From: Patescibacteria group bacterium
GTDB taxonomy: Bacteria; Patescibacteriota; Patescibacteriia; Patescibacteriales; UBA12465
Direction of reading: 5' to 3'
Length of the DNA: 64,000 nt
Assembly (NCBI GenBank): GCA_041671365.1
Contig: JBAZBP010000001.1
Coordinates: forward strand, 389,518 to 453,517
Below, piece by piece: positions 4,249-64,000 of the stretch. Both the position numbers and the translations under genes were made by a program. The notes under the pieces were generated by a model. The model was not told where the DNA came from and did not search any database. It saw nothing but the letters and a program-made list of their open reading frames with translations. Numbering within the stretch: position 1 is the stretch's first letter; the number at the start of each line of letters is the position of its first letter.

Positions 4249-5976
4249 ATGGTTAGCCCTAATTTAAATAAACATCTCGAAAGCCAGCAACCGGTGGAAA
4301 TTAACGAGAACGCTAAAATATTGTTTCAAACTATTTACGGCGAGAAGAATCAAACCGAGGAATCGAATGATGATACTCCGCGTATTAAAGTTTCAACGCT
4401 TATTTCTCGTTTGGCCTTTTTTTATGAAAAAATTAGGAACGCCGTCGATTACGACGAAGACCATTTGCTGCGTAAAAATGCCATTGCTCGTATTTTGCGC
4501 CGGCAGATTTTAATTGAAGGAGTGGTCAAAGAGGCGGATAGTCTAAAAATTTCCGAGCATCTTTTAATTGAACTTATCCGCGGCAGCTATTTGCCCAATA
4601 ACCAGATTCCGGAAACTAAGATTAAAGAAGTGGCTGTCATGTTGGAAAAATATATTAATCTGAAAAATCAGATTTCGGCGAGAATTAATGCCGACTTGAC
4701 GCTAAAAGTCGATATTGATAAAGCTAAAGATTTAGTCAACCAGAAAAACAACTTAATTCATTGGCTTTTGTCTTTAGTGGCTTGCGAGATTGAGGAAAAT
4801 TTAGCGCCGAATCCAGTTAAGCAAGTTATCGTTAATAATCTTTTCGATGTCTTGTCTAAAAATATTAAACTTCCGGCCGATTTGCCCTATGAGGCTGATT
4901 TAGGAATTCAGATTTATCTAAGTATCAGCCGTAATTATTTAAAATTTGACGAAGACATGCTAAGCTTTGTGCTCTTTAAATATTATAACGACGACTGGTT
5001 GGATTTTAATCTGCATGAAGTTTTAACGGCGGATGATTTAAAGAAAATTAAAATTATCGCGCAGAATTTTAGTGAATTAAAGAGCGAGATTAATAAACAG
5101 CTTCATCACCCTTTAACCCGACAGTTAGACAAGATCGTTCGAACCTATTCTCTTTATGCTTCTATTTTAGTTGAAACCGTAGAAAGCGATCCGGCTAAAG
5201 TTTATAATGAACTGCAGAAAGGCGAGAAGAATTTTATCGCCCTGGTTCGCAAGGTTTGTGCGCAAAAATATCATAAAGCGAAAAAACGTCTATGGCGGGT
5301 AGCTTTACGAAGTATTATTTATATTTTTTTAACCAAATCAATTTTTGTTTTTATAATTGAAGTGCCGGCCATTAAATTTTTTAACGAGCCTCTAAACGTT
5401 ATGGCTTTGGCTATTAACGTGGCTTTTCCGGCCATTCTTTTGTTTATTATTGTTTTTCTGACCCGTTTGCCCGGTGAAAATAATACCGCTAAAATTGTGA
5501 ACGGCATCAAGGAAATGACTTTTGCCGGCAGCGAAAGAAAACAGGCGATAGTGCTGCGCCGGCCGACCAGCCGCAATTGGCTCAAAGACGGGCTATATAA
5601 AATAATTTATGCGGCCGCTTTCTTAACGTCGATTTATTATATTATTTTAGCTTTAACCAAGATTAATTTTAATTGGGTCAGTATTACTATTTTTCTTTTC
5701 TTTTTGGCTTTTGTCAGTTTTTTCAGCGTCCGAACGACCGTCGGCATTAAGGAATTAATCGTGGTCGAACGCAAAGAAAATATCATAACTTTTTTACTGG
5801 ATTTATTTTACATGCCGATTATTCTGGCGGGGCGCTGGTTATCCAGTAATTTTTCCAAGATTAATATATTTATTTTCTTTTTTGATTTTATCATTGAGAC
5901 GCCGTTTAAGGTTTTGATGGAAATTGCCGATGATTGGACAAAATACGTCCGCGAACGGCGGGAAAATATTGAATAA
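4249..5976 (+). CDS. hypothetical membrane protein (soluble N-terminal half, several C-terminal TM helices)
   Basis: Long ORF with a clean operon junction to rsmI (2-nt gap). No motif recognised. Confidence 0.6.
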   Translation: MVSPNLNKHLESQQPVEINENAKILFQTIYGEKNQTEESNDDTPRIKVSTLISRLAFFYEKIRNAVDYDEDHLLRKNAIARILRRQILIEGVVKEADSLKISEHLLIELIRGSYLPNNQIPETKIKEVAVMLEKYINLKNQISARINADLTLKVDIDKAKDLVNQKNNLIHWLLSLVACEIEENLAPNPVKQVIVNNLFDVLSKNIKLPADLPYEADLGIQIYLSISRNYLKFDEDMLSFVLFKYYNDDWLDFNLHEVLTADDLKKIKIIAQNFSELKSEINKQLHHPLTRQLDKIVRTYSLYASILVETVESDPAKVYNELQKGEKNFIALVRKVCAQKYHKAKKRLWRVALRSIIYIFLTKSIFVFIIEVPAIKFFNEPLNVMALAINVAFPAILLFIIVFLTRLPGENNTAKIVNGIKEMTFAGSERKQAIVLRRPTSRNWLKDGLYKIIYAAAFLTSIYYIILALTKINFNWVSITIFLFFLAFVSFFSVRTTVGIKELIVVERKENIITFLLDLFYMPIILAGRWLSSNFSKINIFIFFFDFIIETPFKVLMEIADDWTKYVRERRENIE

Positions 5977-10668: not shown

Positions 10669-12303
10669 ATGCCTAAATTTATTTTTGTAGTTGGTGGAGT
10701 AATGTCCGGTGTCGGTAAAGGTGTGACCACCGCTTCCATCGGTCAGATTTTACAGGCGCGCGGTTATAAAGTTAGCGCCATTAAAATGGATCCCTATATT
10801 AATGTGGATGCCGGAACAATGAACCCGATTGAACACGGCGAGGTTTTTGTGACCGAAGACGGCGACGAAACCGATCAGGACATCGGAAACTATGAAAGAT
10901 TTCTCAATCAGAATATTCATCGAGAAAATTACATGACGACCGGCCGCGTTTATCAAAGCGTTATTGCTCGGGAACGTAATTTAGAATATAAAGGAAAGTG
11001 CGTGCAGGTCGTACCTCATATTCCCCAGGAAATTCGGGAGAGGATTGATCGGGCGATTGAAAAAACTCAGGCCGAAATTATGATTGTGGAAATCGGCGGA
11101 ACGGTTGGAGAATATGAGAATCTCTTATTTTTAGAAGCGGCCAGAGTTATAAAACTTTATCACCCTAAGGAAGTTTTATTTGTGATGGTTTCTTATTTGC
11201 CGATTCCCAGCAAAATTGGAGAAATGAAAACTAAGCCGACACAGCACGCCGTGCGCAGCCTGCAAAGCGCCGGTATCCAGCCGGATTTTCTGATTGCCCG
11301 CAGTGAAAAAATGATTGATAAGGCTCGCCGAGAAAAGTTATCGGTTAATTGCAATGTCGCTCTCGACGCGGTAATTGCCGCGCCGGATATTGATTCCATT
11401 TATGATATTCCTTTAAATTTTGAAAAAGATAATTTGGGCGATCGGATTTTAGAAAAATTTTCCTTACCCTTGGGACATAAAAACAATAATCAAGCTTGGA
11501 AAAAAATGGTGGCCGCTTCAAAAATTAAAAAACCGGTCGTTAAAATCGGTATTGTCGGAAAATATTTTACCAGCGGTGATTTTTCCTTCGGCGATTCCTA
11601 TATTTCGGTGATTGAAGCGATAAAGCATGCCGCCGCCGCCAATAAATGCCACGCGCAGATTATCTGGTTGAGTGCGGAAGAAGTTGAAAAAAAAGGAACT
11701 AGAGTTTTACATGACCTCGACGGAATTATTATTCCTCAGGGCTGGGGCGAACGCGGCGCCGAAGGGAAAATAAAAACTATTAAATTTTGTCGGGAAAAGG
11801 GTGTGCCTTATTTCGGTTTATGCTACGGAATGCAAATGGCCGTGATTGAATTCGCGCGCCACGTGGCTAATTTAAAAGACGCCAATTCTTCCGAAGTCGA
11901 TCCTAAAACCACTAATCCGGTTATTCATATAATGTCGGGTCAAGCTAAATTAATAAAAGAAAAAGGTTATGGCGGGACTATTCGTTTGGGCGCCTGGTCT
12001 TGTAAAATAGTAGCCGGAACTCATTTAGCGAAGGCTTATGCTAAATCCACTAAACAAAAGGTTGTGGCCGAACGTCATCGCCATCGCTATGAATTCAATA
12101 ATGATTATCGGAAAGTATTTGAAAATTTGGGTTTGGTTATTGCCGGGACCTCGCCGGATGGAGAAATTGTCGAGGCGGTTGAGCTTACTAATCATCCCTT
12201 TTTTATCGGCGTGCAATTTCATCCCGAATATATTTCTCGTCCGCTCGCGCCGCACCCCTTATTCGTAGAATTTATCAAGGTTTGCCGGAATAAAAAAAAA
12301 TAA
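10669..12303 (+). CDS. pyrG: CTP synthase
   Basis: FVVGGVMSGVGKG, DPYINVDAGTMNP, glutamine amidotransferase GLCYGMQ and HRHRYEFN. Confidence 0.95.
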   Translation: MPKFIFVVGGVMSGVGKGVTTASIGQILQARGYKVSAIKMDPYINVDAGTMNPIEHGEVFVTEDGDETDQDIGNYERFLNQNIHRENYMTTGRVYQSVIARERNLEYKGKCVQVVPHIPQEIRERIDRAIEKTQAEIMIVEIGGTVGEYENLLFLEAARVIKLYHPKEVLFVMVSYLPIPSKIGEMKTKPTQHAVRSLQSAGIQPDFLIARSEKMIDKARREKLSVNCNVALDAVIAAPDIDSIYDIPLNFEKDNLGDRILEKFSLPLGHKNNNQAWKKMVAASKIKKPVVKIGIVGKYFTSGDFSFGDSYISVIEAIKHAAAANKCHAQIIWLSAEEVEKKGTRVLHDLDGIIIPQGWGERGAEGKIKTIKFCREKGVPYFGLCYGMQMAVIEFARHVANLKDANSSEVDPKTTNPVIHIMSGQAKLIKEKGYGGTIRLGAWSCKIVAGTHLAKAYAKSTKQKVVAERHRHRYEFNNDYRKVFENLGLVIAGTSPDGEIVEAVELTNHPFFIGVQFHPEYISRPLAPHPLFVEFIKVCRNKKK

Positions 12304-54894: not shown

Positions 54895-56148
54895 TTATTC
54901 ATGGCTTAAGGCCGTAATCGGATCTAGTTTAGCCGCGCTGCGAGCTGGAAAAACTCCGAAACTAATTCCGATTAAAGCAGAAACGCCAAACCCGAGACCG
55001 ATGGCATATAACGGAACGGAAAATACCCAAGCTAGACCGCTCGCGGTCGCAATAACCGACACTAGCCAGCCTAATGCCGATCCGACGAGTATCCCGACAG
55101 CCCCACCAAGTAAAGTAACCAAAATCGATTCAATTAAAAATTCTCTCAAAATATCAGAATTTTTAGCGCCTAAGGCTTTTTTTAGACCGATTTCCGCCGT
55201 TCGCTCCGTAACCACCACATACATAATATTCATAATTCCGACCCCGCCGACGATAAGGGATATCGCTGCAATGGCAATAAGTAAAATAGTAATACCATCA
55301 AAAATAACGTTAAAAGTACCCATCGCCTCGGCCTGAGTTTGGACAATAAAATCATCTTTACCAGGATCGGTAATATCATGATTTTGTCGTAAAATTATTT
55401 TTATATTTTCGGCGGTAACATCGCCTAAATCAACATTTTTTATTTGAACAATCGCCATCAACAAATGATCAATTCCCAGTATTTTTTTTTGAGCGGTAAC
55501 GAGCGGAACATAAAGCATCTCATCATTACCGCCGGATAAGGCACCGAGTGAATTATAAACTCCGATGACCTGAACATTTATATTCCCCAAACGAACTAGT
55601 TTTCCGAGCGGATCTTCAGAACCAAACAGATCTTGGGCAAGCTGGCTGCCTAAAATAGCCACTTGAGCCGCCCCAGCGTCCTCGGCGGCGGTAAAAAATC
55701 TTCCCGACTTTAAAGTACTTTGATCAATTTCAAATCGCGCGGCAGAAGCACCATAAAACAAAGTACTTTTATTGACATCACGGTAACTGACAATTTTCTG
55801 TCCGACCACCATTCCATAGTCATTAACAACGTTGGCTATTTTTTTTATATCATTTAAATCCTGATTTTTTAAAGTCGTAATGGTCACGCCCGAAGCCACT
55901 CCGCTGGTATGCGAATTTACATTGCTCGCGTTGCGATTTTTTGTCGTCGGCGGAACTCGAGTTTCAATAAATAAAGTATTAGTCCCGTATGATTGCAACT
56001 GAGCATCAATTAGGCTACGAAATCCCGCTCCGGCCGATAATACTAAAATAACGGTAGCGATCCCGATCATAATTCCTAAAGTCGTCAGAATAGTTCTAAC
56101 TAAATTAGAATATAAAACTTTAATAGCTTGTTTGGCGGCCTGATACAT
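54895..56148 (-). CDS. ABC transporter permease, MacB/FtsX type
   Basis: N-terminal TM, large extracytoplasmic domain, C-terminal FtsX domain ERTAEIGLKKALGA. Confidence 0.8.
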   Translation of the reverse strand: MYQAAKQAIKVLYSNLVRTILTTLGIMIGIATVILVLSAGAGFRSLIDAQLQSYGTNTLFIETRVPPTTKNRNASNVNSHTSGVASGVTITTLKNQDLNDIKKIANVVNDYGMVVGQKIVSYRDVNKSTLFYGASAARFEIDQSTLKSGRFFTAAEDAGAAQVAILGSQLAQDLFGSEDPLGKLVRLGNINVQVIGVYNSLGALSGGNDEMLYVPLVTAQKKILGIDHLLMAIVQIKNVDLGDVTAENIKIILRQNHDITDPGKDDFIVQTQAEAMGTFNVIFDGITILLIAIAAISLIVGGVGIMNIMYVVVTERTAEIGLKKALGAKNSDILREFLIESILVTLLGGAVGILVGSALGWLVSVIATASGLAWVFSVPLYAIGLGFGVSALIGISFGVFPARSAAKLDPITALSHE

Positions 56149-56157
56149 AAAATTTTA

Positions 56158-57429
56158 TTATTCGTAACGTAAAGCCTCGATCGGATCTAATCTGGCAGCC
56201 TTAAAGGCGGGATATAAACCGAAGATAATGCCAGTTAAAATTGACACACCTACGGCCAAAATAATCGAAGTTAAGGAAATTACAAAAGCCCAATCATAAC
56301 CCAGATATTTCATTAAAATAGAAATAGCGTAAGACACTATAATTCCAATGATAATTCCGAATATTCCTCCCAGGGCAGTCAGCGTGCCGGCTTCTAACAG
56401 AAATTGTTTAAGAATTGATATATTATTAGCTCCAACCGCCTTGCGTAGTCCTATTTCTCGAGTACGCTCGCCGACGGTCGCCAGCAAAATATTGAAAATT
56501 CCAATACCGCCGACAACTAAAGAAATAGCCGCCATAGCCGTCAAAAACAAACGTAAAGCATCAGTAATGGTCGATAAAAGACTAATCGCTTCAGCCGTAC
56601 TGCGAATTGTATAGTCTATGTCGGTTTCAGTTTTAATATGATGACGTTCATCTAAAACCAGGCCTACATCGGTCATGGTTTGATCAATATTCTCTGCCGA
56701 ATCAACTTTGATATTTATAGCTTGTAAATAATGAATACCTAAAATTTGTTGCTGTCCGATAGTCAGCGGTAAAAAAACTTGATCGTCTTGATCTTGAAAA
56801 AAAGAGGTACCGCGCGGTTCAATGACCCCGATTACTCTCAAGGGGATACCGCCCACCTTAGGATTGAGTGCGCTTTTTATTTTAATAATTTGACCTAAAG
56901 GATTGATTCCCGTATTAGCAAATAATTCAGCGGCCACGGTGGCGCCTAAGACAGCAACGTTGGCACCGCCAGAATCCTGTTGGGCCGTAAAAAATTCACC
57001 GGCCGACATCGAAAAATTAACAACTTGCGGATAATATGAGTCGGTACCTAAAAAATTAGTATCAATAGTCTTATTTCCCCAAGTAACCGTGGCCGTTCCG
57101 CGAACATTCGCATTAATAGCGGCAGCGTGCGGAACTCGTCCGCTATCGCGTAAAACCACGGCATCATCATTAATCAATGTAGTCACGATTACTCCGAAAA
57201 TTTGAGCGGGCGGACCCTTCTCGTTGCTTTTGCCCGGTTGAACGCTAAGCAGATTAGAACCAAGTTTCGTTACTTGTCCTAATACCAAGGTTTGAGCTCC
57301 GGCGCCCAGAGCAATAATAATAATAACCCCGGCTACACCAATCATAATTCCCAGAATGGTCAAAAACGATCGGCCTTTTCTAGCCAAAAGAATGCGAAAT
57401 ACTAATTTAATGGTAGAAAAAAAATTCAC
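56158..57429 (-). CDS. ABC transporter permease, MacB/FtsX type (paralog)
   Basis: ERTREIGLRKAVGA and a C-terminal DPIEALRYE. Confidence 0.8.
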   Translation of the reverse strand: MNFFSTIKLVFRILLARKGRSFLTILGIMIGVAGVIIIIALGAGAQTLVLGQVTKLGSNLLSVQPGKSNEKGPPAQIFGVIVTTLINDDAVVLRDSGRVPHAAAINANVRGTATVTWGNKTIDTNFLGTDSYYPQVVNFSMSAGEFFTAQQDSGGANVAVLGATVAAELFANTGINPLGQIIKIKSALNPKVGGIPLRVIGVIEPRGTSFFQDQDDQVFLPLTIGQQQILGIHYLQAINIKVDSAENIDQTMTDVGLVLDERHHIKTETDIDYTIRSTAEAISLLSTITDALRLFLTAMAAISLVVGGIGIFNILLATVGERTREIGLRKAVGANNISILKQFLLEAGTLTALGGIFGIIIGIIVSYAISILMKYLGYDWAFVISLTSIILAVGVSILTGIIFGLYPAFKAARLDPIEALRYE

Positions 57430-57436
57430 AGAATTC

Positions 57437-58153
57437 TTATTTAATTAGATCTTTGTCGGCCTCTGCCAAGGTTCGCTGTTTTACTAGATCATCATTAATA
57501 ATCAAACCATCTTTAATTTTAATAATACGTTTAGCATGATTAGCGGTATCAGTTTCATGGGTAACTAAAATAATTGTGCGCCCCTGATTATTTAATTGCT
57601 GTAAAAGATACATAACCGTATTTCCGGATTTAGAGTCCAAATTTCCCGTCGGTTCATCGGCAAAAATAACGGCCGGATCACAAACTAGGGCTCGAGCAAT
57701 AGCCACGCGCTGTTTTTCTCCACCCGAAATTTGATTAGTATAATAATTTAACCGGTGAGCCAAACCCACAGATTCTAAAGCTTTTTTAGCTAGAGCGTCA
57801 TGATTCTTTTTCTGGCTATACAACAGGGGCAATTTAACATTATCCAGAACCGAAGTTCGTGGTAATAAATTAAAAGACTGAAAAACAAAACCAATTCGTT
57901 CATTTCTTAAAACAGCTAAATAATTATCATCGAAATCTTTGGTATCCTGTCCATCAAAGGTATAAACGCCGGCTGTGGGTCGATCCAGAAAACTTAAAAT
58001 ATGCATCAAAGTTGACTTGCCGCTACCGGAGGGTCCCATAATAGCCACGAACTCTCCTTGATCAATTATAAAGTTAAGTTTATGCAAAACCGGAGTAATG
58101 ACGCCCTCACTATCATAGTTCTTTTCTAAATTATTAACTGAAATTAGATTCAT
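57437..58153 (-). CDS. ABC transporter ATP-binding protein (MacB/LolD/FtsE-like)
   Basis: [40 protein letters not shown]. Confidence 0.9.
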
Positions 58154-58190
58154 AGATAGAGTGAGTTAATAAACTATTGTATAAATAAAT

Positions 58191-59948
58191 TTATGGTTTA
58201 ATATAGGTCACAATTTCCTGGCCAGCCGATAAGCCGGAAATAATTTCAACCAAACCCCCGTCCGCTCGTAAACCGATTTGCACCGGCACTTGATGATAGT
58301 TTTTAGTTTGAGTGTTATCAATTATTCTAATATATGACTGATTGTTTTGATCGATGAGGGCGCTGCTAGGCACGGCTAAAACCTTATTTTTGCTGGCAAT
58401 CTCAATAGTCATGTTAACCGTCATGCCGGGTTTAATTTCGGGGATATTAGGCAAGGTGGCTTTTACTAAATAATCCACTACGCCTGAAATTACTGTTGAA
58501 GCCGGATCAATAGTCAGAATTTTTCCGCTAAAATGATTATCCGGGCCTAAAGCGTCAAAAGTATAATCGACTGTTTGGTCAATCTGCAAAGAAGCAATAT
58601 TTGCCTCACTCACGTACGACTCCGTATGAAGAGAATTAATATCCTGTAGAACTACTACCTCCTGCAGGGCGCTAACCTGCTGACCGATTTTAGTGTCGAC
58701 GGAAGTTATCGTTCCGTCTACAGGAGCTTTTAGATAAGTATTGTTTAAATTAGCCCGGGCGGCGTCTACTGTTCCTTGAGCTGATAGTATTTGCGCTTGT
58801 GCCATAGCAATATCGGTTGACTGAGCTTTAGCGCTTTGCTGGGCCAGAGTTGCTTGCGCTTGCTGCAAAGCGGCCTGAGCACTATTAATCTGATTTTGAG
58901 CAGAAGTTATTTGTTGCGTGGCCGTTAAGTTGGCATTTTCCACGGCATTCTTAGCGAGAGTTAAAGCATCGGTTAAGGCCTGCCGGGCAGAATTAATTAA
59001 AGAAATTCCGGAGTTTTCGCCGCTTAAACGACTACTAATAGTTGATTTATAAGCATCTAATTGGCTTTGACTGAATTTTTGGCTGACAATCGAATTTTGC
59101 AGAGCGGTGTAACAGGCATTAAGAGCTGTAATATTTTGATTTAAAACACTGGTCGCGTCATTAATGGCCTGATAAATATTGGTGTCGCTCTTATAAGCCT
59201 GGGCGGTAGCCAAGCTGGTGTTGGCTTGGGTCAATAAACCTTGCACTTGGCTGTTGGCATTTTTAAATTCACTTAAACTGGTCGAGTTGGCCACGCTGAA
59301 AGTATCCTTCAGATCGCTATCATTTAAAATTTTATTTTCTTCATCCAAATCCGACTTAACCGCGGCTAATTGATTAGCCAGAGTAACAATAATCGCTGAA
59401 CGTTTATTATCAGATTGGGTCATAGGCGACTCCAGATCGTCTAAAGTATTCTGAGCTTGATTAATGGCAGCGGCGGTTGACTCTTTAACGATATCTAATT
59501 GCTTTAAAGCATTATTATAGGCAACCGAGGCGGCATTAACCGCTTTTTGCGAAACATTAATCTGCTCTTTAGACGAACCGGCCACAACCTTATTATAGTT
59601 GGCTCGCGCCTGAGCGAGAGTTCCTTGAGCGCTGGTAACCGCCGCTTGAATACTGTCTTGATTCAAAGTTCCTAAAACATCTCCCGCCTTAACTTTGTCG
59701 CCGGATTTTACGCTTAAAGTTTTGACCACGCCACTCGTCTGAAAACTTAAATTAAGATTTACTTGGCTGACTACTTGGCCGGTAGTTAAAACAGTTGCCT
59801 GAATGTTTTGTTCTTTAACCGTATCAGTCTGAATATTAGTAGAGACGTTTTTACTTTTCGTTAAATAATACCAGGAGCCGACACCAATTAAAATAATTAC
59901 AACAAACCAAATAACTTTGCGGGCACTAAAAATTTTGCGTACATTCAT
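58191..59948 (-). CDS. HlyD/MacA-family membrane fusion (adaptor) protein with an unusually long coiled-coil hairpin
   Basis: N-terminal TM, lipoyl-like SGDKVKAGDVLGTL, about 300 aa of A/Q/N-rich coiled coil, C-terminal beta domains. Confidence 0.75.
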   Translation of the reverse strand: MNVRKIFSARKVIWFVVIILIGVGSWYYLTKSKNVSTNIQTDTVKEQNIQATVLTTGQVVSQVNLNLSFQTSGVVKTLSVKSGDKVKAGDVLGTLNQDSIQAAVTSAQGTLAQARANYNKVVAGSSKEQINVSQKAVNAASVAYNNALKQLDIVKESTAAAINQAQNTLDDLESPMTQSDNKRSAIIVTLANQLAAVKSDLDEENKILNDSDLKDTFSVANSTSLSEFKNANSQVQGLLTQANTSLATAQAYKSDTNIYQAINDATSVLNQNITALNACYTALQNSIVSQKFSQSQLDAYKSTISSRLSGENSGISLINSARQALTDALTLAKNAVENANLTATQQITSAQNQINSAQAALQQAQATLAQQSAKAQSTDIAMAQAQILSAQGTVDAARANLNNTYLKAPVDGTITSVDTKIGQQVSALQEVVVLQDINSLHTESYVSEANIASLQIDQTVDYTFDALGPDNHFSGKILTIDPASTVISGVVDYLVKATLPNIPEIKPGMTVNMTIEIASKNKVLAVPSSALIDQNNQSYIRIIDNTQTKNYHQVPVQIGLRADGGLVEIISGLSAGQEIVTYIKP

Positions 59949-59986: not shown

Positions 59987-60015
59987 ATTTTAGTAGCTAA
60001 ACTAAAAATTGTCAA
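59987..60015 (-). promoter_or_regulatory. sigma70-like promoter (TTGACA-17-TAAAAT) for the adaptor/ABC operon
   Basis: On the minus strand, -35 is at 60010-60015 and -10 at 59987-59992. Confidence 0.5.
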
Positions 60016-60082: not shown

Positions 60083-61297
60083 TTACTTGTTTTTATTATA
60101 ATTAAACGTGTAAGATTGTTCAAAAGCCTTAACAAGGCTCTTTATATTAGTAATCATGACCGATTCGTCGTTTCTGAAGAAACCGTTAGAACTCCAATTA
60201 TTTGTTCCAAAAACCGCAATCCGATCATCAAGCACCAGAAGGTGGTGGTGTAGAAATGAATTTAGATCGTCGTCCGGTAAAATTTTAGCGATTTCTTGAT
60301 TTCTATTACTGTCAGTAATAATTTCTAAATTATTTAAATTTTGTCTATTTTTTTGAGCTGCTAATACTGGGAAAGCCGACCCGGTCGCCGACCAATTATA
60401 GTCATCGGTAATAATACTGACTGGTATTTGTTTTGACTTTAGGGCTAGCTCGGCCGCTACGTCCTTATCGGTTAAAGACCAGGTCATAATTTTTATATTA
60501 TCTCTAGAATTCCGAATTAAGTTTAGCATTCTATCTTTTATATTATTATCGACTAACCCGGGCGAAAACCAAATCTCAATAAAACCTTCTGGGTATCTTA
60601 TTAAGGCGGCGTAAGGATTATAATTAGCAGATTTCTTTACGCTGCCGTGTAGCCCTCCGGCTAAACGGTCAAATTCATCGCCAAAAAGACTAATTAATTC
60701 CGGCCGTTCGGTTGTTAATATGAAACTGGGGTCATATTTACCCTGGATATTCGTAAAATTATATGAACCAAAAAATAACTTTGGCTGAGCAGACCCGCGA
60801 TCAATCAGCAAAAATTTATGATGCATTGAACCGCCGTTTGAAGAAACAAAACTAATTTTCAAATTTTTGTGATTATTGACAAATAGATTCTCTATTCCGT
60901 TTTGATGCTTATCACTAAAAACCAAATCAACTGAAACGCCCCTGGCCGCCGCTCGATATAAGGCATCGCGGATAGCCGAATTATCCATAGAATACATGGC
61001 CAGCTCTATTTTATTTTTCGCCGCATCAAGGCCATTAACAATTAATTCCGAAAAGACATCCAAGCCTAATTCATCATTAAAATATAAATTTGCTGAAAAC
61101 GATTCGTTAACTTCGATAGTTCTGGCCGGTGGCGACGTTATTACTTCGCGATTTTGATACAATCTAAAAAAAGTTAAACCTAAATATAGGCATAAAATTA
61201 ACAGGAGGAGAGGCAGGGCGATAACAATAAATTTCTTATTAAAATTATCTCCAATTTTTATTTTAACTTTCCGTATTAAAATCTTTAGCCAGATCAT
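60083..61297 (-). CDS. membrane-anchored phospholipase D / Nuc-family protein with two HKD-type motifs
   Basis: K/R-rich N-terminus plus one TM. Motif 1 is HHKFLLID...GSYNFT (around 60804-60823). Motif 2 is HHHLLVLDDRIAVFGTNNWS (60196-60250), with His where the Lys is expected. Confidence 0.75.
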   Translation of the reverse strand: MIWLKILIRKVKIKIGDNFNKKFIVIALPLLLLILCLYLGLTFFRLYQNREVITSPPARTIEVNESFSANLYFNDELGLDVFSELIVNGLDAAKNKIELAMYSMDNSAIRDALYRAAARGVSVDLVFSDKHQNGIENLFVNNHKNLKISFVSSNGGSMHHKFLLIDRGSAQPKLFFGSYNFTNIQGKYDPSFILTTERPELISLFGDEFDRLAGGLHGSVKKSANYNPYAALIRYPEGFIEIWFSPGLVDNNIKDRMLNLIRNSRDNIKIMTWSLTDKDVAAELALKSKQIPVSIITDDYNWSATGSAFPVLAAQKNRQNLNNLEIITDSNRNQEIAKILPDDDLNSFLHHHLLVLDDRIAVFGTNNWSSNGFFRNDESVMITNIKSLVKAFEQSYTFNYNKNK

Positions 61298-62981
61298 AAT
61301 GTCTGTCGTACTTTAAATTAATATTTTTTTTATTGGCAAAAACAATCAGGATTGATTCCGGTAAATCTGAATCAATAATCTTTAATATCTTTTCAATATC
61401 TGGGTAGTTTAAATCGAGCCAGGCATTATCTATAATAATTAGTGATGGCCTGGCGACCAAACAATGCAAAGAATGCAAAGCAAAGGCGGCCACGTGGTTA
61501 GTCCAAATTTTATCAGCTGTCGAACTAAAATTATAATTAGTCGTCACGAGCCCGGTTAACAAGGGGTAGGCGGCCATAATTTTTAAAGCCCGATCAATCT
61601 CGGAAAAATCAGTTTCCTCCCGATCTGAACCCAAAATTAATTCCATCAAACTTTTTTGCGAATAAAAAAGCGGATCAAAAAAATATACTTTATTAAACTG
61701 CCGCTGATAATCAGAAAAATCCAGCCGGCGTCCGTCTAATTTAACTTTTATTGCTTTAGAACTATAAGTTTCGGCTCCAAAAAATAATTTAGCTAAAGTA
61801 GTTTTACCGGAAAGATTGGGACCATAAAATAAATAACGGCCTTTTTTTAGAAAATTAAAACATAAATTTCGGTAATATTTCCCAGTTTTTAGTAATTTTA
61901 CTTTTCGGCTATAAAAAGTAATCCCCTGCTTAATATCTAACACGTTATCACGACGTCGATATTTATTCATTTTGATATTGGTCAATGAAAAACCCAATTT
62001 AGCCGGAAAAAAATAAAGACCGACACGCAAAGCCTCATAGGCAACCCGGGATAAATAGATTAATAAAAAAGCATAGAGAAATTTAAGATCCGGACTAATT
62101 AAATTAATCCAGGAAATTAAATCATTATAAAAAAAATGGGTCAACATGGAAACGAACAAGAGTAAAATAAAAATTATTTTAAAACCCATTTTCATCCATA
62201 AATCCCGACGCACCCTAAAAATGGAATCAAATTTAACTAATGAATCGAATTTCTTTAAAATTATTGGCTCCAGATTAAAACTTTTTAAAAAATATTTTTC
62301 CGACAAGCTTAAATCAATATGTTTAATTATTTGAGAGTAAAAAGTAACTTCCTGAGAAACATATTTTTTAACTACAAAGTAAGCGGGAACCACAATAATT
62401 AGCGATAATATTAAAAAGCTAATTAAAATAATTAACATGTTAAAGCCGGCCAATGAGGCGACAATCACCGCCGAAATTACATAAATCAACCAGCGAATAA
62501 AACCAAAAAAGGAATTAGATATACCCATGGAGACTAGAGGCAGATGGTAAGAAATTTTAGCGATTAAGTCGGCTTGTTTCTCCGGCTTCATTTCTTCGAA
62601 CGGTCGCCCCAAGTAATTTCTAAAAATTCGACGACGAAGATAGTTAATCAAAAGAACCACTACCGTTTTTTCTTGTTTAATAGATAAAAAAGAATTGATA
62701 ATAAAAACGAGAAAAAATACCCAAAATATTTGCCAAAAAAATAAGCTCAAAGTCTTATCCCCGCCATAAACTAATTGATTTCGGCTAAAAACTATCAGAG
62801 AAGTCTCAATAATTCCCTGCGTAATTAGAAGCACTATTGTTCCTAGCAGAAGAAATCGCTGTTGTTTTAAAAAAATAAGCAGATAACTCGAATAAGGGTT
62901 AGGCCGATTAGCGACTTGGTTTTTATTACGGCTAACGCGGATTCTTTTTAATAACCGCATCTGCTCTTTAATGTTTATCAT
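61263..62981 (-). CDS. ABC-exporter-like protein (6-TM domain plus degenerate nucleotide-binding domain)
   Basis: The TM domain resembles type I exporters. Walker A is GPNLSGKTT (61797-61823). Walker B is LIIIDN, with Asn (61425-61427) where the catalytic Glu is expected. No LSGGQ signature and no H-loop His. Confidence 0.65.
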   Translation of the reverse strand: MINIKEQMRLLKRIRVSRNKNQVANRPNPYSSYLLIFLKQQRFLLLGTIVLLITQGIIETSLIVFSRNQLVYGGDKTLSLFFWQIFWVFFLVFIINSFLSIKQEKTVVVLLINYLRRRIFRNYLGRPFEEMKPEKQADLIAKISYHLPLVSMGISNSFFGFIRWLIYVISAVIVASLAGFNMLIILISFLILSLIIVVPAYFVVKKYVSQEVTFYSQIIKHIDLSLSEKYFLKSFNLEPIILKKFDSLVKFDSIFRVRRDLWMKMGFKIIFILLLFVSMLTHFFYNDLISWINLISPDLKFLYAFLLIYLSRVAYEALRVGLYFFPAKLGFSLTNIKMNKYRRRDNVLDIKQGITFYSRKVKLLKTGKYYRNLCFNFLKKGRYLFYGPNLSGKTTLAKLFFGAETYSSKAIKVKLDGRRLDFSDYQRQFNKVYFFDPLFYSQKSLMELILGSDREETDFSEIDRALKIMAAYPLLTGLVTTNYNFSSTADKIWTNHVAAFALHSLHCLVARPSLIIIDNAWLDLNYPDIEKILKIIDSDLPESILIVFANKKNINLKYDRHYDLAKDFNTES

Positions 62982-64000
62982 AATGGAATTTCTTGTACTG
63001 ATTATATAATGAGGTAATTTTTATGTCGACCAAGGATTTAAACAATCGGTGACGGTTACGGGGAGAATATCGTTTATAAAAAAATTTAGTGAGAATGGAA
63101 AAAAACTTTTCCGACATTTTTTTTATTTGACTTGAATTATTTATTTGGGATTTATCTTTAATAATTTTTAAAAACTGATTATTAAAATTTTTTTCCGGAT
63201 TAATCATTATTTTTTTTAAAAGTTTTTGTTTGGCCGAATCCTTCAGGTGTTGATAGGTTAAAATATTTTTCCAGACCGCTTCGTTCCTGGCGACAAAGGC
63301 CGGTTCCAATCCGATTATTCCGGAATTAAAGGTGTAGCCTAAAAAAACATATTTTTTTTGAGCCGCTCCAAAAAATAATTTTTTTCGATTAAGCTCAAGG
63401 CCGCGAGCCGATAAATCAACGGCCAACTCGCTTAATATTTTCCGAAGTTTATCTTTATCGGGATCTAAAAAGGCAATATCATCTCCGACTCTAATATAAA
63501 AAGCGGATTTAACTTGATATTTAAAATCTAAATCCGTCAAATATAAATTAGCAAAAAGCGCTATCAAGGGCACTCCCTGTACTAGTCCTTGTAAGGGTAT
63601 GTCGCGCTTCCCGTCTCGATATATTTGATTAAAAATAAACAAATGTAAAAGATCTAAAATTTTTTGATCACTAAAAAGTTTTTGTAGCTGTAAATACATG
63701 ATATTCCGATCAATCCGATCAGAATAATTTTTTAAATCTATAATTAAAGCCTGATCGGTCAAAAACTCCTTTCGATAGCGACGACAAAAAATACGAGCCG
63801 CTAAATACGGCGGCTTATCCGGTCGATATGAAAAAAGACGACTGGAAAAAGCGTCTTCAAATTTCGGTAAAACAACTCGATAGATAGCCTGAGCCTTAAT
63901 TCTTTCTTTAAGGTTGTATATAAAAATTTCTCGGTACTCTTCAGGCTTATTCCTTTTAGGAATTTTAATAGCCTGAGCCGGCTCGATTTCTCTTCTTTGC
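62968..64000 (-). CDS. reverse transcriptase, unclassified; N-terminus beyond the window edge
   Basis: The frame is open to position 64000; the track M at 63762 is an internal TTG. Hand translation upstream gives ...AIKIPKRNKPEEYREIFIYNLKERIKAQAIY...FSYRPDKPPYLAA... (RT motifs 1-2). Later motifs are IIDLKNYSDRID (3), LQGLVQGVPLIALFANLYLTDLD (4), FYIRVGDDIAF (5) and GLELNRKK...VFLGYTF (6-7). Confidence 0.8.
   Translation of the reverse strand, partial: QRREIEPAQAIKIPKRNKPEEYREIFIYNLKERIKAQAIYRVVLPKFEDAFSSRLFSYRPDKPPYLAARIFCRRYRKEFLTDQALIIDLKNYSDRIDRNIMYLQLQKLFSDQKILDLLHLFIFNQIYRDGKRDIPLQGLVQGVPLIALFANLYLTDLDFKYQVKSAFYIRVGDDIAFLDPDKDKLRKILSELAVDLSARGLELNRKKLFFGAAQKKYVFLGYTFNSGIIGLEPAFVARNEAVWKNILTYQHLKDSAKQKLLKKIMINPEKNFNNQFLKIIKDKSQINNSSQIKKMSEKFFSILTKFFYKRYSPRNRHRLFKSLVDIKITSLYNQYKKFHYDKH

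Follow-up and report, generated by a model that had tools for sequence, protein, structure and literature searches.

Introduction

Domesticated bacterial reverse transcriptases (RTs) have more than once brought surprising biochemistry to light; the precedents are retrons, which make multicopy single-stranded DNA (msDNA), and the defence-associated RT (DRT) systems, with gene synthesis in DRT2, homopolymers in DRT9 and telomerase-like repeats in DRT10. The characterised bacterial operons that join an RT to a non-coding RNA (ncRNA) and an effector are, diversity-generating retroelements (DGRs) excepted, all antiviral (PMC12632851, PMC9226505), and in DRT10 the RT and its ncRNA are paired with a membrane protein (PMC12632851). 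Here, a locus that invites comparison with these operons is described from 64,000 nucleotides of a Patescibacteria group bacterium (GenBank assembly GCA_041671365.1, contig JBAZBP010000001.1, positions 389,518 to 453,517 of the forward strand; this whole stretch is called the window below). Close to the end of the window, on the minus strand, an RT gene is followed by genes for an ABC-exporter-like (ABC-like) protein and for a membrane-anchored protein of the PLD superfamily, and a structured RNA lies directly upstream of the RT, just beyond the window edge.

The preliminary description of the window, made from the sequence alone, had reported three minus-strand genes overlapping by 14 nt (RT/ABC-like, 62968-62981) and 35 nt (ABC-like/PLD, 61263-61297), and an RT whose N-terminus is cut off by the window edge. 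The list of open reading frames (ORFs) agrees with both overlaps, whose lengths are counted from the first ATG of each ORF, and the missing 58 residues were supplied by a 13.6-kb contig (L001), retrieved through an exact match to the ABC-like protein, that is near-identical to the window (3 of 8793 overlapping bases differ; window position = 68856 minus L001 position). The full RT occupies positions 4683-5888 of this contig and has 401 aa; a non-coding stretch of 247 nt separates it from the upstream genes, which encode a DEAD-box helicase and a P-type ATPase.

A recurrent four-part locus

The locus is one genetic module of four parts (a structured RNA, the RT, the ABC-like protein and the PLD protein), and its three genes are translationally coupled and co-diverging. 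The RT belongs to a family of ~401 aa, whose homologues (36-93% identical) are annotated as hypothetical proteins or generic RTs in metagenome-assembled genomes of Patescibacteria. When one genome per species (GTDB) was scanned with the RT alignment, 66 loci were obtained, with RT identities from 72% down to ~31%. Almost all of these loci are from Patescibacteria, and the labels they carry are Falkowbacteria, Magasanikbacteria, Parcubacteria, Paceibacterota, Saccharibacteria, Peribacteria and Peregrinibacteria.

The three window proteins were then used to search the six-frame ORFs of the loci. All sufficiently long loci of the 66 have the RT, ABC-like and PLD genes in this order, on one strand and mostly overlapping, except L067, where the ABC-like and PLD genes are divergent and stand upstream of the RT. 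Linkage of the RT to both partners, which the preliminary description had singled out as a point to be checked, is kept in 64 of the 66 loci, and the remaining two are cut by contig ends; the recurrent order and strand are far beyond chance. Five genomes have two deeply diverged copies (RT identity 36-59%), and the divergence of the RT is paralleled there by that of the ABC-like and PLD proteins.

The ABC-like family is, moreover, discrete. In a word-indexed database its members score 468-747 bits and the next matches, ordinary ABC exporters, 66 bits, while an exhaustive search among 1.84 billion representatives found 88 clusters at E<=1e-30, followed by generic exporters below ~60 bits. A family with such clear edges indicates that the partners are dedicated to the module, and that the family is small.

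One locus does not fit the taxonomic picture. The whole module, including the RNA, is present at L052:6775-11343 on a 2.96-Mb contig of ~63% GC that is labelled Longimicrobiales and falls outside the Candidate Phyla Radiation (CPR). The GC content of this copy is 57%, and its RNA helices are maintained through G-C pairs; it could represent horizontal transfer out of the CPR or a chimeric assembly.

The RNA upstream of the reverse transcriptase

In most loci a gap of ~250-330 nt is found 5′ of the RT, irrespective of the upstream gene, and its final ~200 nt are 70-83% identical between loci with RTs only 57-72% identical. The preliminary description had proposed that the sequence past position 64000 be inspected for structured repeats, and in L001 this sequence does hold a conserved, covarying and pseudoknotted RNA directly upstream of the RT, which is 172 nt long there and roughly 170-250 nt across loci. 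According to the alignment and RNAalifold, the RNA is closed by a 12-bp helix (P1). In P1, the 3′ strand is the Shine-Dalgarno region of the RT (UUGGGGAUGAUU, 8-12 nt 5′ of the AUG), and an anti-Shine-Dalgarno-like sequence (AAUCAUCCUCAA) makes up the 5′ strand. The other elements are a small hairpin (P2); a long arm (P3), which is capped by a hairpin with the loop UUAAUAU; a GC-rich hairpin that varies; a single strand that is conserved; and, at the 3′ side, a further hairpin (P4). The strand that follows P2 (GAUAUUA) complements the P3 loop (UAAUAUC), giving a pseudoknot of 6-7 bp. It was also observed that the 5′ strand of P1 (L001:4506-4517 and equivalents, AAUCAUCCUC) resembles the 3′ tail of 16S rRNA, which we take to be AUCACCUCCUU, so that it would pair with the Shine-Dalgarno region of the RT as a ribosome would.

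Several lines of evidence support this structure. Compensatory changes occur in 28 of the 43 pairs of the seed alignment, and the L001 RNA has a folding z-score of -6.1. A covariance model built from 14 sequences places the RNA on the strand of the RT, directly upstream of it, in 41 loci (E<1e-3), the majority of which were not in the seed, as well as in a single relative from a viral collection, and it detects no copy in 106 kb of related loci without the module. A sequence profile adds the RNA in six more loci, and in the most distant loci the same design is discernible by eye; the RNA is present only where the RT is. In an alignment of 42 sequences, which was fitted to the model and therefore favours the structure, although the margin is large, 93% of cells are paired (36-45% when the partners are slid), double changes are seen in 40 of 43 pairs and none of 500 shuffles reaches the observed values; with the pseudoknot pairs included, 93.6% of cells are paired (37-43% when slid) and 46 of 49 pairs have double changes. 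The pseudoknot is 96.9% paired in this model-fitted alignment, with six of its six pairs covarying. An independent MAFFT/RNAalifold run on 8 distant loci, including L052, recovered the pseudoknot helix (5 of 7 pairs covarying) and the P4 hairpin with a conserved CCGUUUGG loop. Rfam has no family that matches the RNA, and none was found anywhere in the window.

Promoter-like boxes are located just 5′ of P1 (TTGATA-17-TATTAT in L001 and TATAAT boxes in L010, L013 and L014), and the RNA would thus be the 5′ end of the operon transcript. Because the Shine-Dalgarno region is part of P1, the RNA fold or RT binding may also throttle translation and, since the genes are coupled, such masking would gate the whole operon. 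The same features can be turned into a rival explanation, namely that the RNA is a cis-regulatory leader and nothing else (an RT-bound translational operator or a riboswitch), that the RT acts elsewhere, for example in repair like G2L4, and that the ABC-like and PLD genes are merely co-expressed with it. The pairing of the Shine-Dalgarno region with its anti-Shine-Dalgarno-like strand and the -10 boxes immediately upstream are what such a leader would show, LtrA binds DIVa of its own intron and group II intron RTs bind a structure spanning their own start site, and G2L4 is a precedent for a free-standing group II-like RT that works without a template RNA.

However, the RNA also occurs in arrangements that suggest more than a leader. 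In L003 (6526-6760) a second full copy lies 3′ of a tRNA gene and continues into ATG-TTT-CGC-TAG (a 3-codon RT remnant) and a terminator hairpin, after which come a new promoter and the RT-proximal RNA copy. Tandem copies, 6-50 nt apart, are found in three other loci (L011:6627-6994, L029:6609-6992 and L037:931-1505). L008 (3794-6992) has three type IV pilin-like genes that are nearly identical, and two of these stand between the RNA (4812-4978) and the RT (7001), resulting in the string RNA-pilin-pilin-RT-ABC-PLD with the RNA 2 kb from the RT. Stand-alone, tandem and separated copies suggest that the RNA works as a partner of the RT, beyond a leader role. In addition, the pseudoknot and the internal arms are conserved far past what masking of the Shine-Dalgarno region needs, the RT lacks the YIDD signature of G2L4, and the strict co-inheritance and overlap of the three genes argue for one machine. 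A role as leader alone is therefore judged improbable, and we favour the RNA as a partner of the RT.

The polymerase and its class

In Pfam the RT matches RVT_1 (44 bits). In a profile search of the PDB the best matches are group II intron RTs, namely GsI-IIC (114 bits) and the RTs of E. rectale and R. intestinalis (107-108 bits), followed by Cas6-RT-Cas1 (100 bits), DRT9 (53 bits), DRT2 (47-48 bits), G2L4 (39 bits) and the retron RTs Ec86 and Kva2 (25-28 bits). The AlphaFold model (pLDDT 91.6) superposes in Foldseek on the full-length GsI-IIC RT (6ar1/6ar3) with a TM-score of 0.79, so a thumb/X-like domain and C-terminal helices are present, and the model shows the complete group II intron RT fold. 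The short helical tail with which the preliminary description let the protein end must accordingly be replaced by a thumb/X and C-terminal region that match those of GsI-IIC.

The RT looks catalytically active, as D146, the G-D-D of motif C and K265 are invariant in 66 of 66 sequences (the window RT reads Y226-x-R-V-G-D-D232). Its active site nonetheless departs from that of group II intron RTs in two places. The column counts of motif C are V59/I4/L3, G66, D66 and D66, and the position of GsI-IIC F143 (presumably Y115 in HIV-1 RT) is occupied by S51/T8/A4/F2/C1, that is, by Ser or Thr in 59 of 66 sequences. In GsI-IIC, F143 makes a stacking contact with the sugar of the incoming dNTP, and HIV-1 RT has an equivalent Tyr (PMC12337344). 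The V-G-D-D motif together with the loss of the sugar-stacking Phe raises the possibility that the polymerase is not restricted to deoxynucleotides; relaxed sugar selection, with a product of RNA or of mixed composition, is put forward here as speculation.

Judged by profile scores, the RT fits no known RT class. The PADLOC RT models (UG1-UG39, Drt2-Drt9, CRISPR RT and one retron-type) gave no member-level match, the best scores being ~100-140 bits, and the NCBIfam model group_II_RT_mat scored 91 bits vs a cut-off of 300; comparison with such reference models had been recommended at the outset, and it leaves the RT without a family. Neither PADLOC, NCBIfam nor PHROGs holds a member-level family for any of the three proteins. 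The best named PADLOC class is UG26 (98 bits for the window RT and ~98-125 bits overall; best E 2e-37 among 24 members), but a generic RT model and an RT-Cas1 model score as high; UG17 reaches 75 bits, Drt9 49 and Drt2 26, and RT_II-A is matched weakly, by 8 of 24 RT members only.

The nearness of the RT, in sequence and in fold, to group II intron RTs would be expected if the locus were a decayed or unusual mobile group II intron, or some other retroelement such as a retron or DGR, with incidental neighbours. For a group II intron the RT type does fit, but no intron RNA was found by Rfam in the window, in L001 3000-9500 (E<=5) or in 10 other loci, and the ABC-like gene begins within the stop codon region of the RT, where the preliminary description had seen no room for intron domains V/VI. 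Retrons are disfavoured by the RT itself, for which Ec86 and Kva2 reach at most 28 bits vs 114 bits for group II RTs. Set beside a retron msr/msd, the RNA does have a terminal closing helix, while it has no Rfam match and no conserved G after the 5′ strand (CAAAACCC). As already noticed from the sequence of the window, the DGR hallmark (I/L)GxxxSQ is not in motif 4, which reads GLVQGVPLIALFANLYL, and a search for a template repeat/variable repeat pair in the 13.6 kb of L001 returned only short matches of 68-77% identity. Finally, each genome has one copy, or two deeply diverged ones, always with the same partners. Taken with these points, a decayed retroelement is barely credible. Two further RT types were considered and set aside: G2L4-type repair RTs, as YIDD is replaced by [V/I/L]-G-D-D in 66 of 66 sequences, and CRISPR-associated RTs, as the RT stands alone, with the ABC-like and PLD genes for fixed neighbours, and the flanks show no recurrent cas-like cluster (CRISPR arrays were not specifically searched).

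Two membrane partners

The ABC-like protein has six long transmembrane helices and a C-terminal, degenerate nucleotide-binding domain (NBD). Its Pfam matches are both under the cut-offs (ABC_membrane 26 bits; ABC_tran 19 bits, cut-off 25), but type IV exporters are matched at 50-60 bits by profile, and the AlphaFold model (pLDDT 84) aligns over its full length in Foldseek with outward-facing, nucleotide-bound TM287/288, MsbA, TAP and PglK (TM-scores 0.65-0.71), so that, on the model, the protein has a type IV exporter fold. The Walker motifs can be located (Table 1), but the position of the catalytic Glu after the Walker B Asp is N57/A5/S2/D1 and never E, the Q-loop Gln position is Asp in 43 of 66 sequences, no LSGGQ signature motif exists in the family and the H-loop His is at its position in only 4 of 66. 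The ATPase is thus degenerate, as had been said of it from the start; the NBD may still bind ATP, and hydrolysis-driven pumping is unlikely. The invariant residues cluster in the cytoplasmic extensions of the transmembrane helices (N113/R116, K142/Y145, Y207-S216 and D252-R259).

The PLD protein is matched twice by Pfam PLDc_2. In the PDB profile search, MitoPLD/Zucchini (67 bits), NucT (66 bits) and Nuc (53 bits) each match one half of it, and the NCBIfam cardiolipin synthase models are weak (E 1.8e-4 or worse); on these scores the protein belongs to the Nuc/Zucchini nuclease branch and not to the cardiolipin synthases or lipid PLDs. Weak PADLOC matches to defence PLDs such as DrmC, MkoB and DpdK were also recorded, and these speak for a defence role. 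The preliminary description had announced two HKD motifs, and this holds in full for motif 1, which is canonical; motif 2 is an HxH variant, with His for Lys in 61 of 61 sequences and with its His, Asp, Gly and Asn kept. The N-terminal anchor is preceded by a Lys/Arg-rich tail, and in 51 of 61 homologues K/R residues are more abundant on the N-side, from which an N-in orientation with the catalytic domains outside is predicted.

A PLD of the nuclease branch, predicted to be extracytoplasmic on its N-in anchor, next to a complete exporter fold that is modelled outward-facing, would also suit a second rival explanation: that the module handles nucleic acids at the envelope and serves nucleotide salvage, DNA uptake or host interaction, not immunity. 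In one version, the product of the RT leaves the cell through the ABC-fold protein, and the outward-facing PLD protein trims it, releases it or attaches it to the surface; in the other, nucleic acid from outside or from a host is cut by the PLD protein, let in by the ABC-fold protein and then converted or primed by the RT-RNA complex. The membrane-anchored outward nucleases EndA, NucA and NucT act in DNA uptake, and the near-confinement of the module to the Patescibacteria, which are episymbiotic and nucleotide-auxotrophic, is in line with such a function. On the other hand, an ATPase-dead NBD supplies no energy for export, and we know of no RT in any transport or uptake pathway. Envelope handling of nucleic acids, which the predicted outside location of the PLD protein and the housekeeping neighbours (see below) keep in play, is the main rival explanation, although it is considered rather unlikely, and an RT-driven export or surface system, in which an RNA copy would be handed to the ATPase-dead ABC conduit and cut or attached outside by the PLD protein, seems improbable when taken as a specific proposal.

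Neighbours, boundaries and accessory status

Among the annotated genes that recur next to the module are housekeeping genes, which differ from clade to clade (thymidine kinase, sigma factor, rubrerythrin, RNase III, NusB and SDR), along with cupredoxin-like proteins, large surface proteins, pilins and, in L029 and L032, an rRNA operon. In the latter two loci (L029:11466-15206 and L032:11488-14236) the module lies ~390 nt upstream of the 23S rRNA gene, and in L029 the order along the strand is 23S, 5S and the start of 16S, as opposed to the usual 16S-23S-5S. The 23S genes of the two loci are 94.3% identical and their RTs 64% identical.

Housekeeping neighbours of this kind speak for an envelope or salvage role, in particular the thymidine kinase directly 3′ of the module in six loci and the pilins between RNA and RT in L008. 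Thymidine kinase directly follows the PLD gene in six Magasanikbacteria-type loci (L015, L016, L020, L024 at 11540-12091, L025 and L026), which possibly hints at nucleotide salvage or else is inherited synteny; as evidence for the envelope explanation it is weakened by being limited to one clade. A specific linkage to pilins was rejected, as pilin-like genes upstream in 14 loci are, by a rough estimate, at about chance level in pilin-rich CPR genomes. The patchiness of the module among close relatives likewise argues against a core physiological role.

A ~205-aa protein with no Pfam match is encoded directly 3′ of the PLD gene in 13 loci (the L035-L053 and L065 clade, e.g. L051:11110-11727) and could be a clade-specific fourth component. 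A fourth gene conserved across the module was discarded as a candidate, because the ~190-205-aa genes at this place are unrelated and clade-specific: housekeeping genes for thymidine kinase, a sigma factor and rubrerythrin, and the Pfam-less family of 13 loci.

In the window the module adjoins a MacB-type efflux operon (54895-59948, minus strand) that encodes a 585-aa adaptor, an ABC ATPase and two paralogous FtsX/MacB permeases, with a MarR regulator after it in relatives; its promoter and gene order are kept in relatives without the RT module. The preliminary description had regarded the three genes as a transcription unit separate from this operon, and the promoter on which it relied stands (TTGACA-17-TAAAAT at 60015-59987, an 11/12 match to consensus). 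No terminator-like site is found between the PLD stop and this promoter, so that read-through into the adaptor operon is possible, and transcription of the two units is only likely to be separate.

The module is accessory, being patchy among relatives and sometimes present twice per genome. Homologues of the adaptor gene are far more numerous than those of the RT, and in L069 (adaptor 72% identical) the same order of P-type ATPase, DEAD helicase and adaptor-MacB-FtsX-FtsX genes is found, with the adaptor promoter and without the module: 140 nt occupy the site of the 4.3-kb module in the window's lineage. Five other relatives have different genes at this site and no module. Conserved flanks had suggested that the module might be a set of core genes, and this reading was dropped because the syntenic site in L069 is empty. 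The GC content of the three genes is lower than that of the flanks in 46 of 56 loci (mean -2.8 points), a difference to which rRNA and tRNA genes in some flanks may contribute.

What the module may do

The preliminary description had called the trio a candidate new RT-based system, and this proposal is strengthened by the conserved linkage, the upstream RNA, the class tests and the negative results for introns and DGRs. As to function, the best explanation is tentatively a defence-like one, in which an RT-RNA product controls the membrane pair, although we would put its chances somewhat below even. It is favoured because of the analogy with retrons and with DRT2/3/9/10, especially the tripartite DRT10. 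In this model the RT would bind the upstream structured RNA, the P1 fold or the bound RT would throttle translation of the whole coupled operon, and the RT would copy part of the RNA into a nucleic-acid product. This product, or its loss during phage infection, would act on the cytoplasmic face of the ATPase-dead ABC-like dimer, which would not pump but form a switch or a conduit through the membrane and so control the PLD hydrolase at the outer side. The result would be defence-like, with infection aborted or growth arrested via damage to the membrane or to nucleic acids, as in DRT10.

A number of observations weigh against a defence-like function. First, the PLD domains are predicted to be outside and could not reach phage DNA in the cytoplasm, and to our knowledge an ABC-exporter fold is the effector or transducer of no known defence system. 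Second, the sequence does not allow a cDNA product, a template region or a priming site to be named, and the RNA could be a cis-acting translational regulator alone. Third, the genomic setting is atypical: no defence genes were seen among the annotated recurrent neighbour clusters, to which the scan was limited, and in one clade the module flanks are constant across genomes with 94% identical 23S rRNA. In addition, just 1 of 2.9 million viral contigs in IMG/VR encodes a relative (with the RNA also present), and no direct or inverted repeats of at least 9 nt are common to both junctions in L001, such that the mobility usual for defence islands is not evident.

Whatever the function, the partner proteins and the RNA family are new for domesticated operons of RT, ncRNA and effector, as no PADLOC, NCBIfam, PHROGs or Rfam model exists for them, and in the searchable literature neither a description of a module of RT, RNA, ABC-like and PLD nor a report of two membrane partners of this kind with an RT was found. 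The module contributes (i) a well-defined and comparatively well-supported RT case from the CPR, (ii) an RT that is of full group II type but has a modified active site and (iii) a pseudoknotted RNA family absent from Rfam, with covariation sufficient to fix its structure. Under any reading, the likely lesson is in how a cytoplasmic polymerase-RNA complex communicates across a membrane. If a defence function is true, an ATPase-dead ABC fold with an outward-facing PLD would be an effector design without precedent; if it is not, the module would be a rare use of bacterial reverse transcription that is neither immune nor mobile. Were the export proposal true, the module would constitute the first pathway of its kind for polymerase-coupled secretion of nucleic acids, in cell-attached bacteria, and either export or relaxed sugar selectivity would be categorically new. 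As a compact enzyme of 401 aa that comes with an RNA of its own, the RT may also be of interest for tool building.

Table 1. Features of the module and its boundaries (window positions unless L001 is given)
Feature	Position	Strand	Remarks
RT (reverse transcriptase)	62968..64000, stop included	(-)	C-terminal 343 of 401 aa in window; ORF list
RT start	off-window at ~64173	(-)	N-terminal 58 aa beyond window edge; read in L001
RT stop codon	62968-62970	(-)	frame open from window edge; ORF list
RT motif A, catalytic Asp D146, then L-K-N-Y-S	63736..63738	(-)	HMM alignment to 6ar1
RT motif C, V-G-D-D (Y-A-D-D in group II intron RTs)	63478..63489	(-)	sequence
ABC-exporter-like half-transporter	61263..62981	(-)	572 aa; ORF list
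Walker A, G-P-N-L-S-G-K-T	61800..61823	(-)	G392 59/66, K393 57/66
Walker B, L-I-I-I-D-N	61425..61442	(-)	Asp 65/65
Membrane-anchored PLD-superfamily protein	60083..61297	(-)	404 aa; two Nuc/Zucchini-type domains
Predicted N-terminal transmembrane anchor of PLD protein, residues 23-41	61175..61231	(-)	hydropathy and positive-inside count
HKD motif 1, H159-x-K161-x4-D166	60800..60823	(-)	canonical, invariant
HKD motif 2 variant, H350-x-H352-x4-D357	60227..60250	(-)	Lys replaced by invariant His
Promoter-like TTGACA-17-TAAAAT of downstream adaptor/MacB/FtsX operon	59987..60015	(-)	boundary, outside module
172-nt structured RNA	L001:4506-4677 (~window 64179-64350, off-window)	RT strand	read in L001
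Promoter-like TTGATA-17-TATTAT	L001:4454-4482 (off-window)	RT strand	just 5′ of structured RNA

Relation to known systems

Nuc, NucT and Zucchini (MitoPLD) are the nearest known proteins to the PLD component, giving the best PDB matches for both of its halves, and Zucchini/MitoPLD also has an N-terminal membrane anchor. Unlike these, the PLD protein of the module has two domains in one chain, its second HKD motif is HxH, and its gene is invariably coupled to those of the RT and the ABC-like protein. For the membrane pair as a whole, a likeness to 'ABC transporters that do not transport' of the FtsEX type may be drawn, as a conceptual analogy only, in that a complex of the ABC family would switch an extracytoplasmic hydrolase. 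FtsEX, however, has a type VII fold and an active ATPase, whereas the module protein has a modelled type IV fold and has lost its ATPase residues.

With regard to the polymerase, the group II intron RTs (GsI-IIC, PDB 6AR1/6AR3) are the best match in sequence and structure, with the N-terminal extension, fingers/palm and thumb/X in common. They differ from the module RT in having an intron RNA, which the module lacks, Y-A-D-D where it has V-G-D-D, and F143 where it has Ser/Thr, and the module has two membrane partners and a dedicated small RNA as fixed features. G2L4 and other free-standing G2L RTs are alike in being domesticated group II-like RTs of ~400 aa that have no intron. The defining features of G2L4 are YIDD and an RT3a plug; it requires neither a partner RNA nor membrane proteins and functions in the repair of double-strand breaks, and the profile match of the module RT to it is only 39 bits. 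UG26 RTs (Mestre et al. 2022, PMC9226505) are the best-scoring named class, with a model length of 398 positions, but the score is well under the expected member level, only model positions 43-326 are covered, and the linkage reported for UG26 is, in some cases, to a Vsr-like endonuclease and not to genes of the ABC or PLD kind (PMC9226505).

The closest system in overall plan is DRT10 (UG17 RT, ncRNA and SLATT protein; PMC12632851). The module RT is not a UG17 RT (75 bits, less than vs group II RTs), its partners are an ABC-exporter fold and a PLD protein instead of SLATT, its RNA lies directly 5′ of the RT and masks the Shine-Dalgarno region, and no defence-island context is seen among the annotated recurrent neighbours. 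What the two have in common is a compact operon with a small RT, an ncRNA of ~140-200 nt in an adjacent intergenic region, a co-evolving membrane protein and a working model in which a nucleic acid made by the RT would control a membrane effector.

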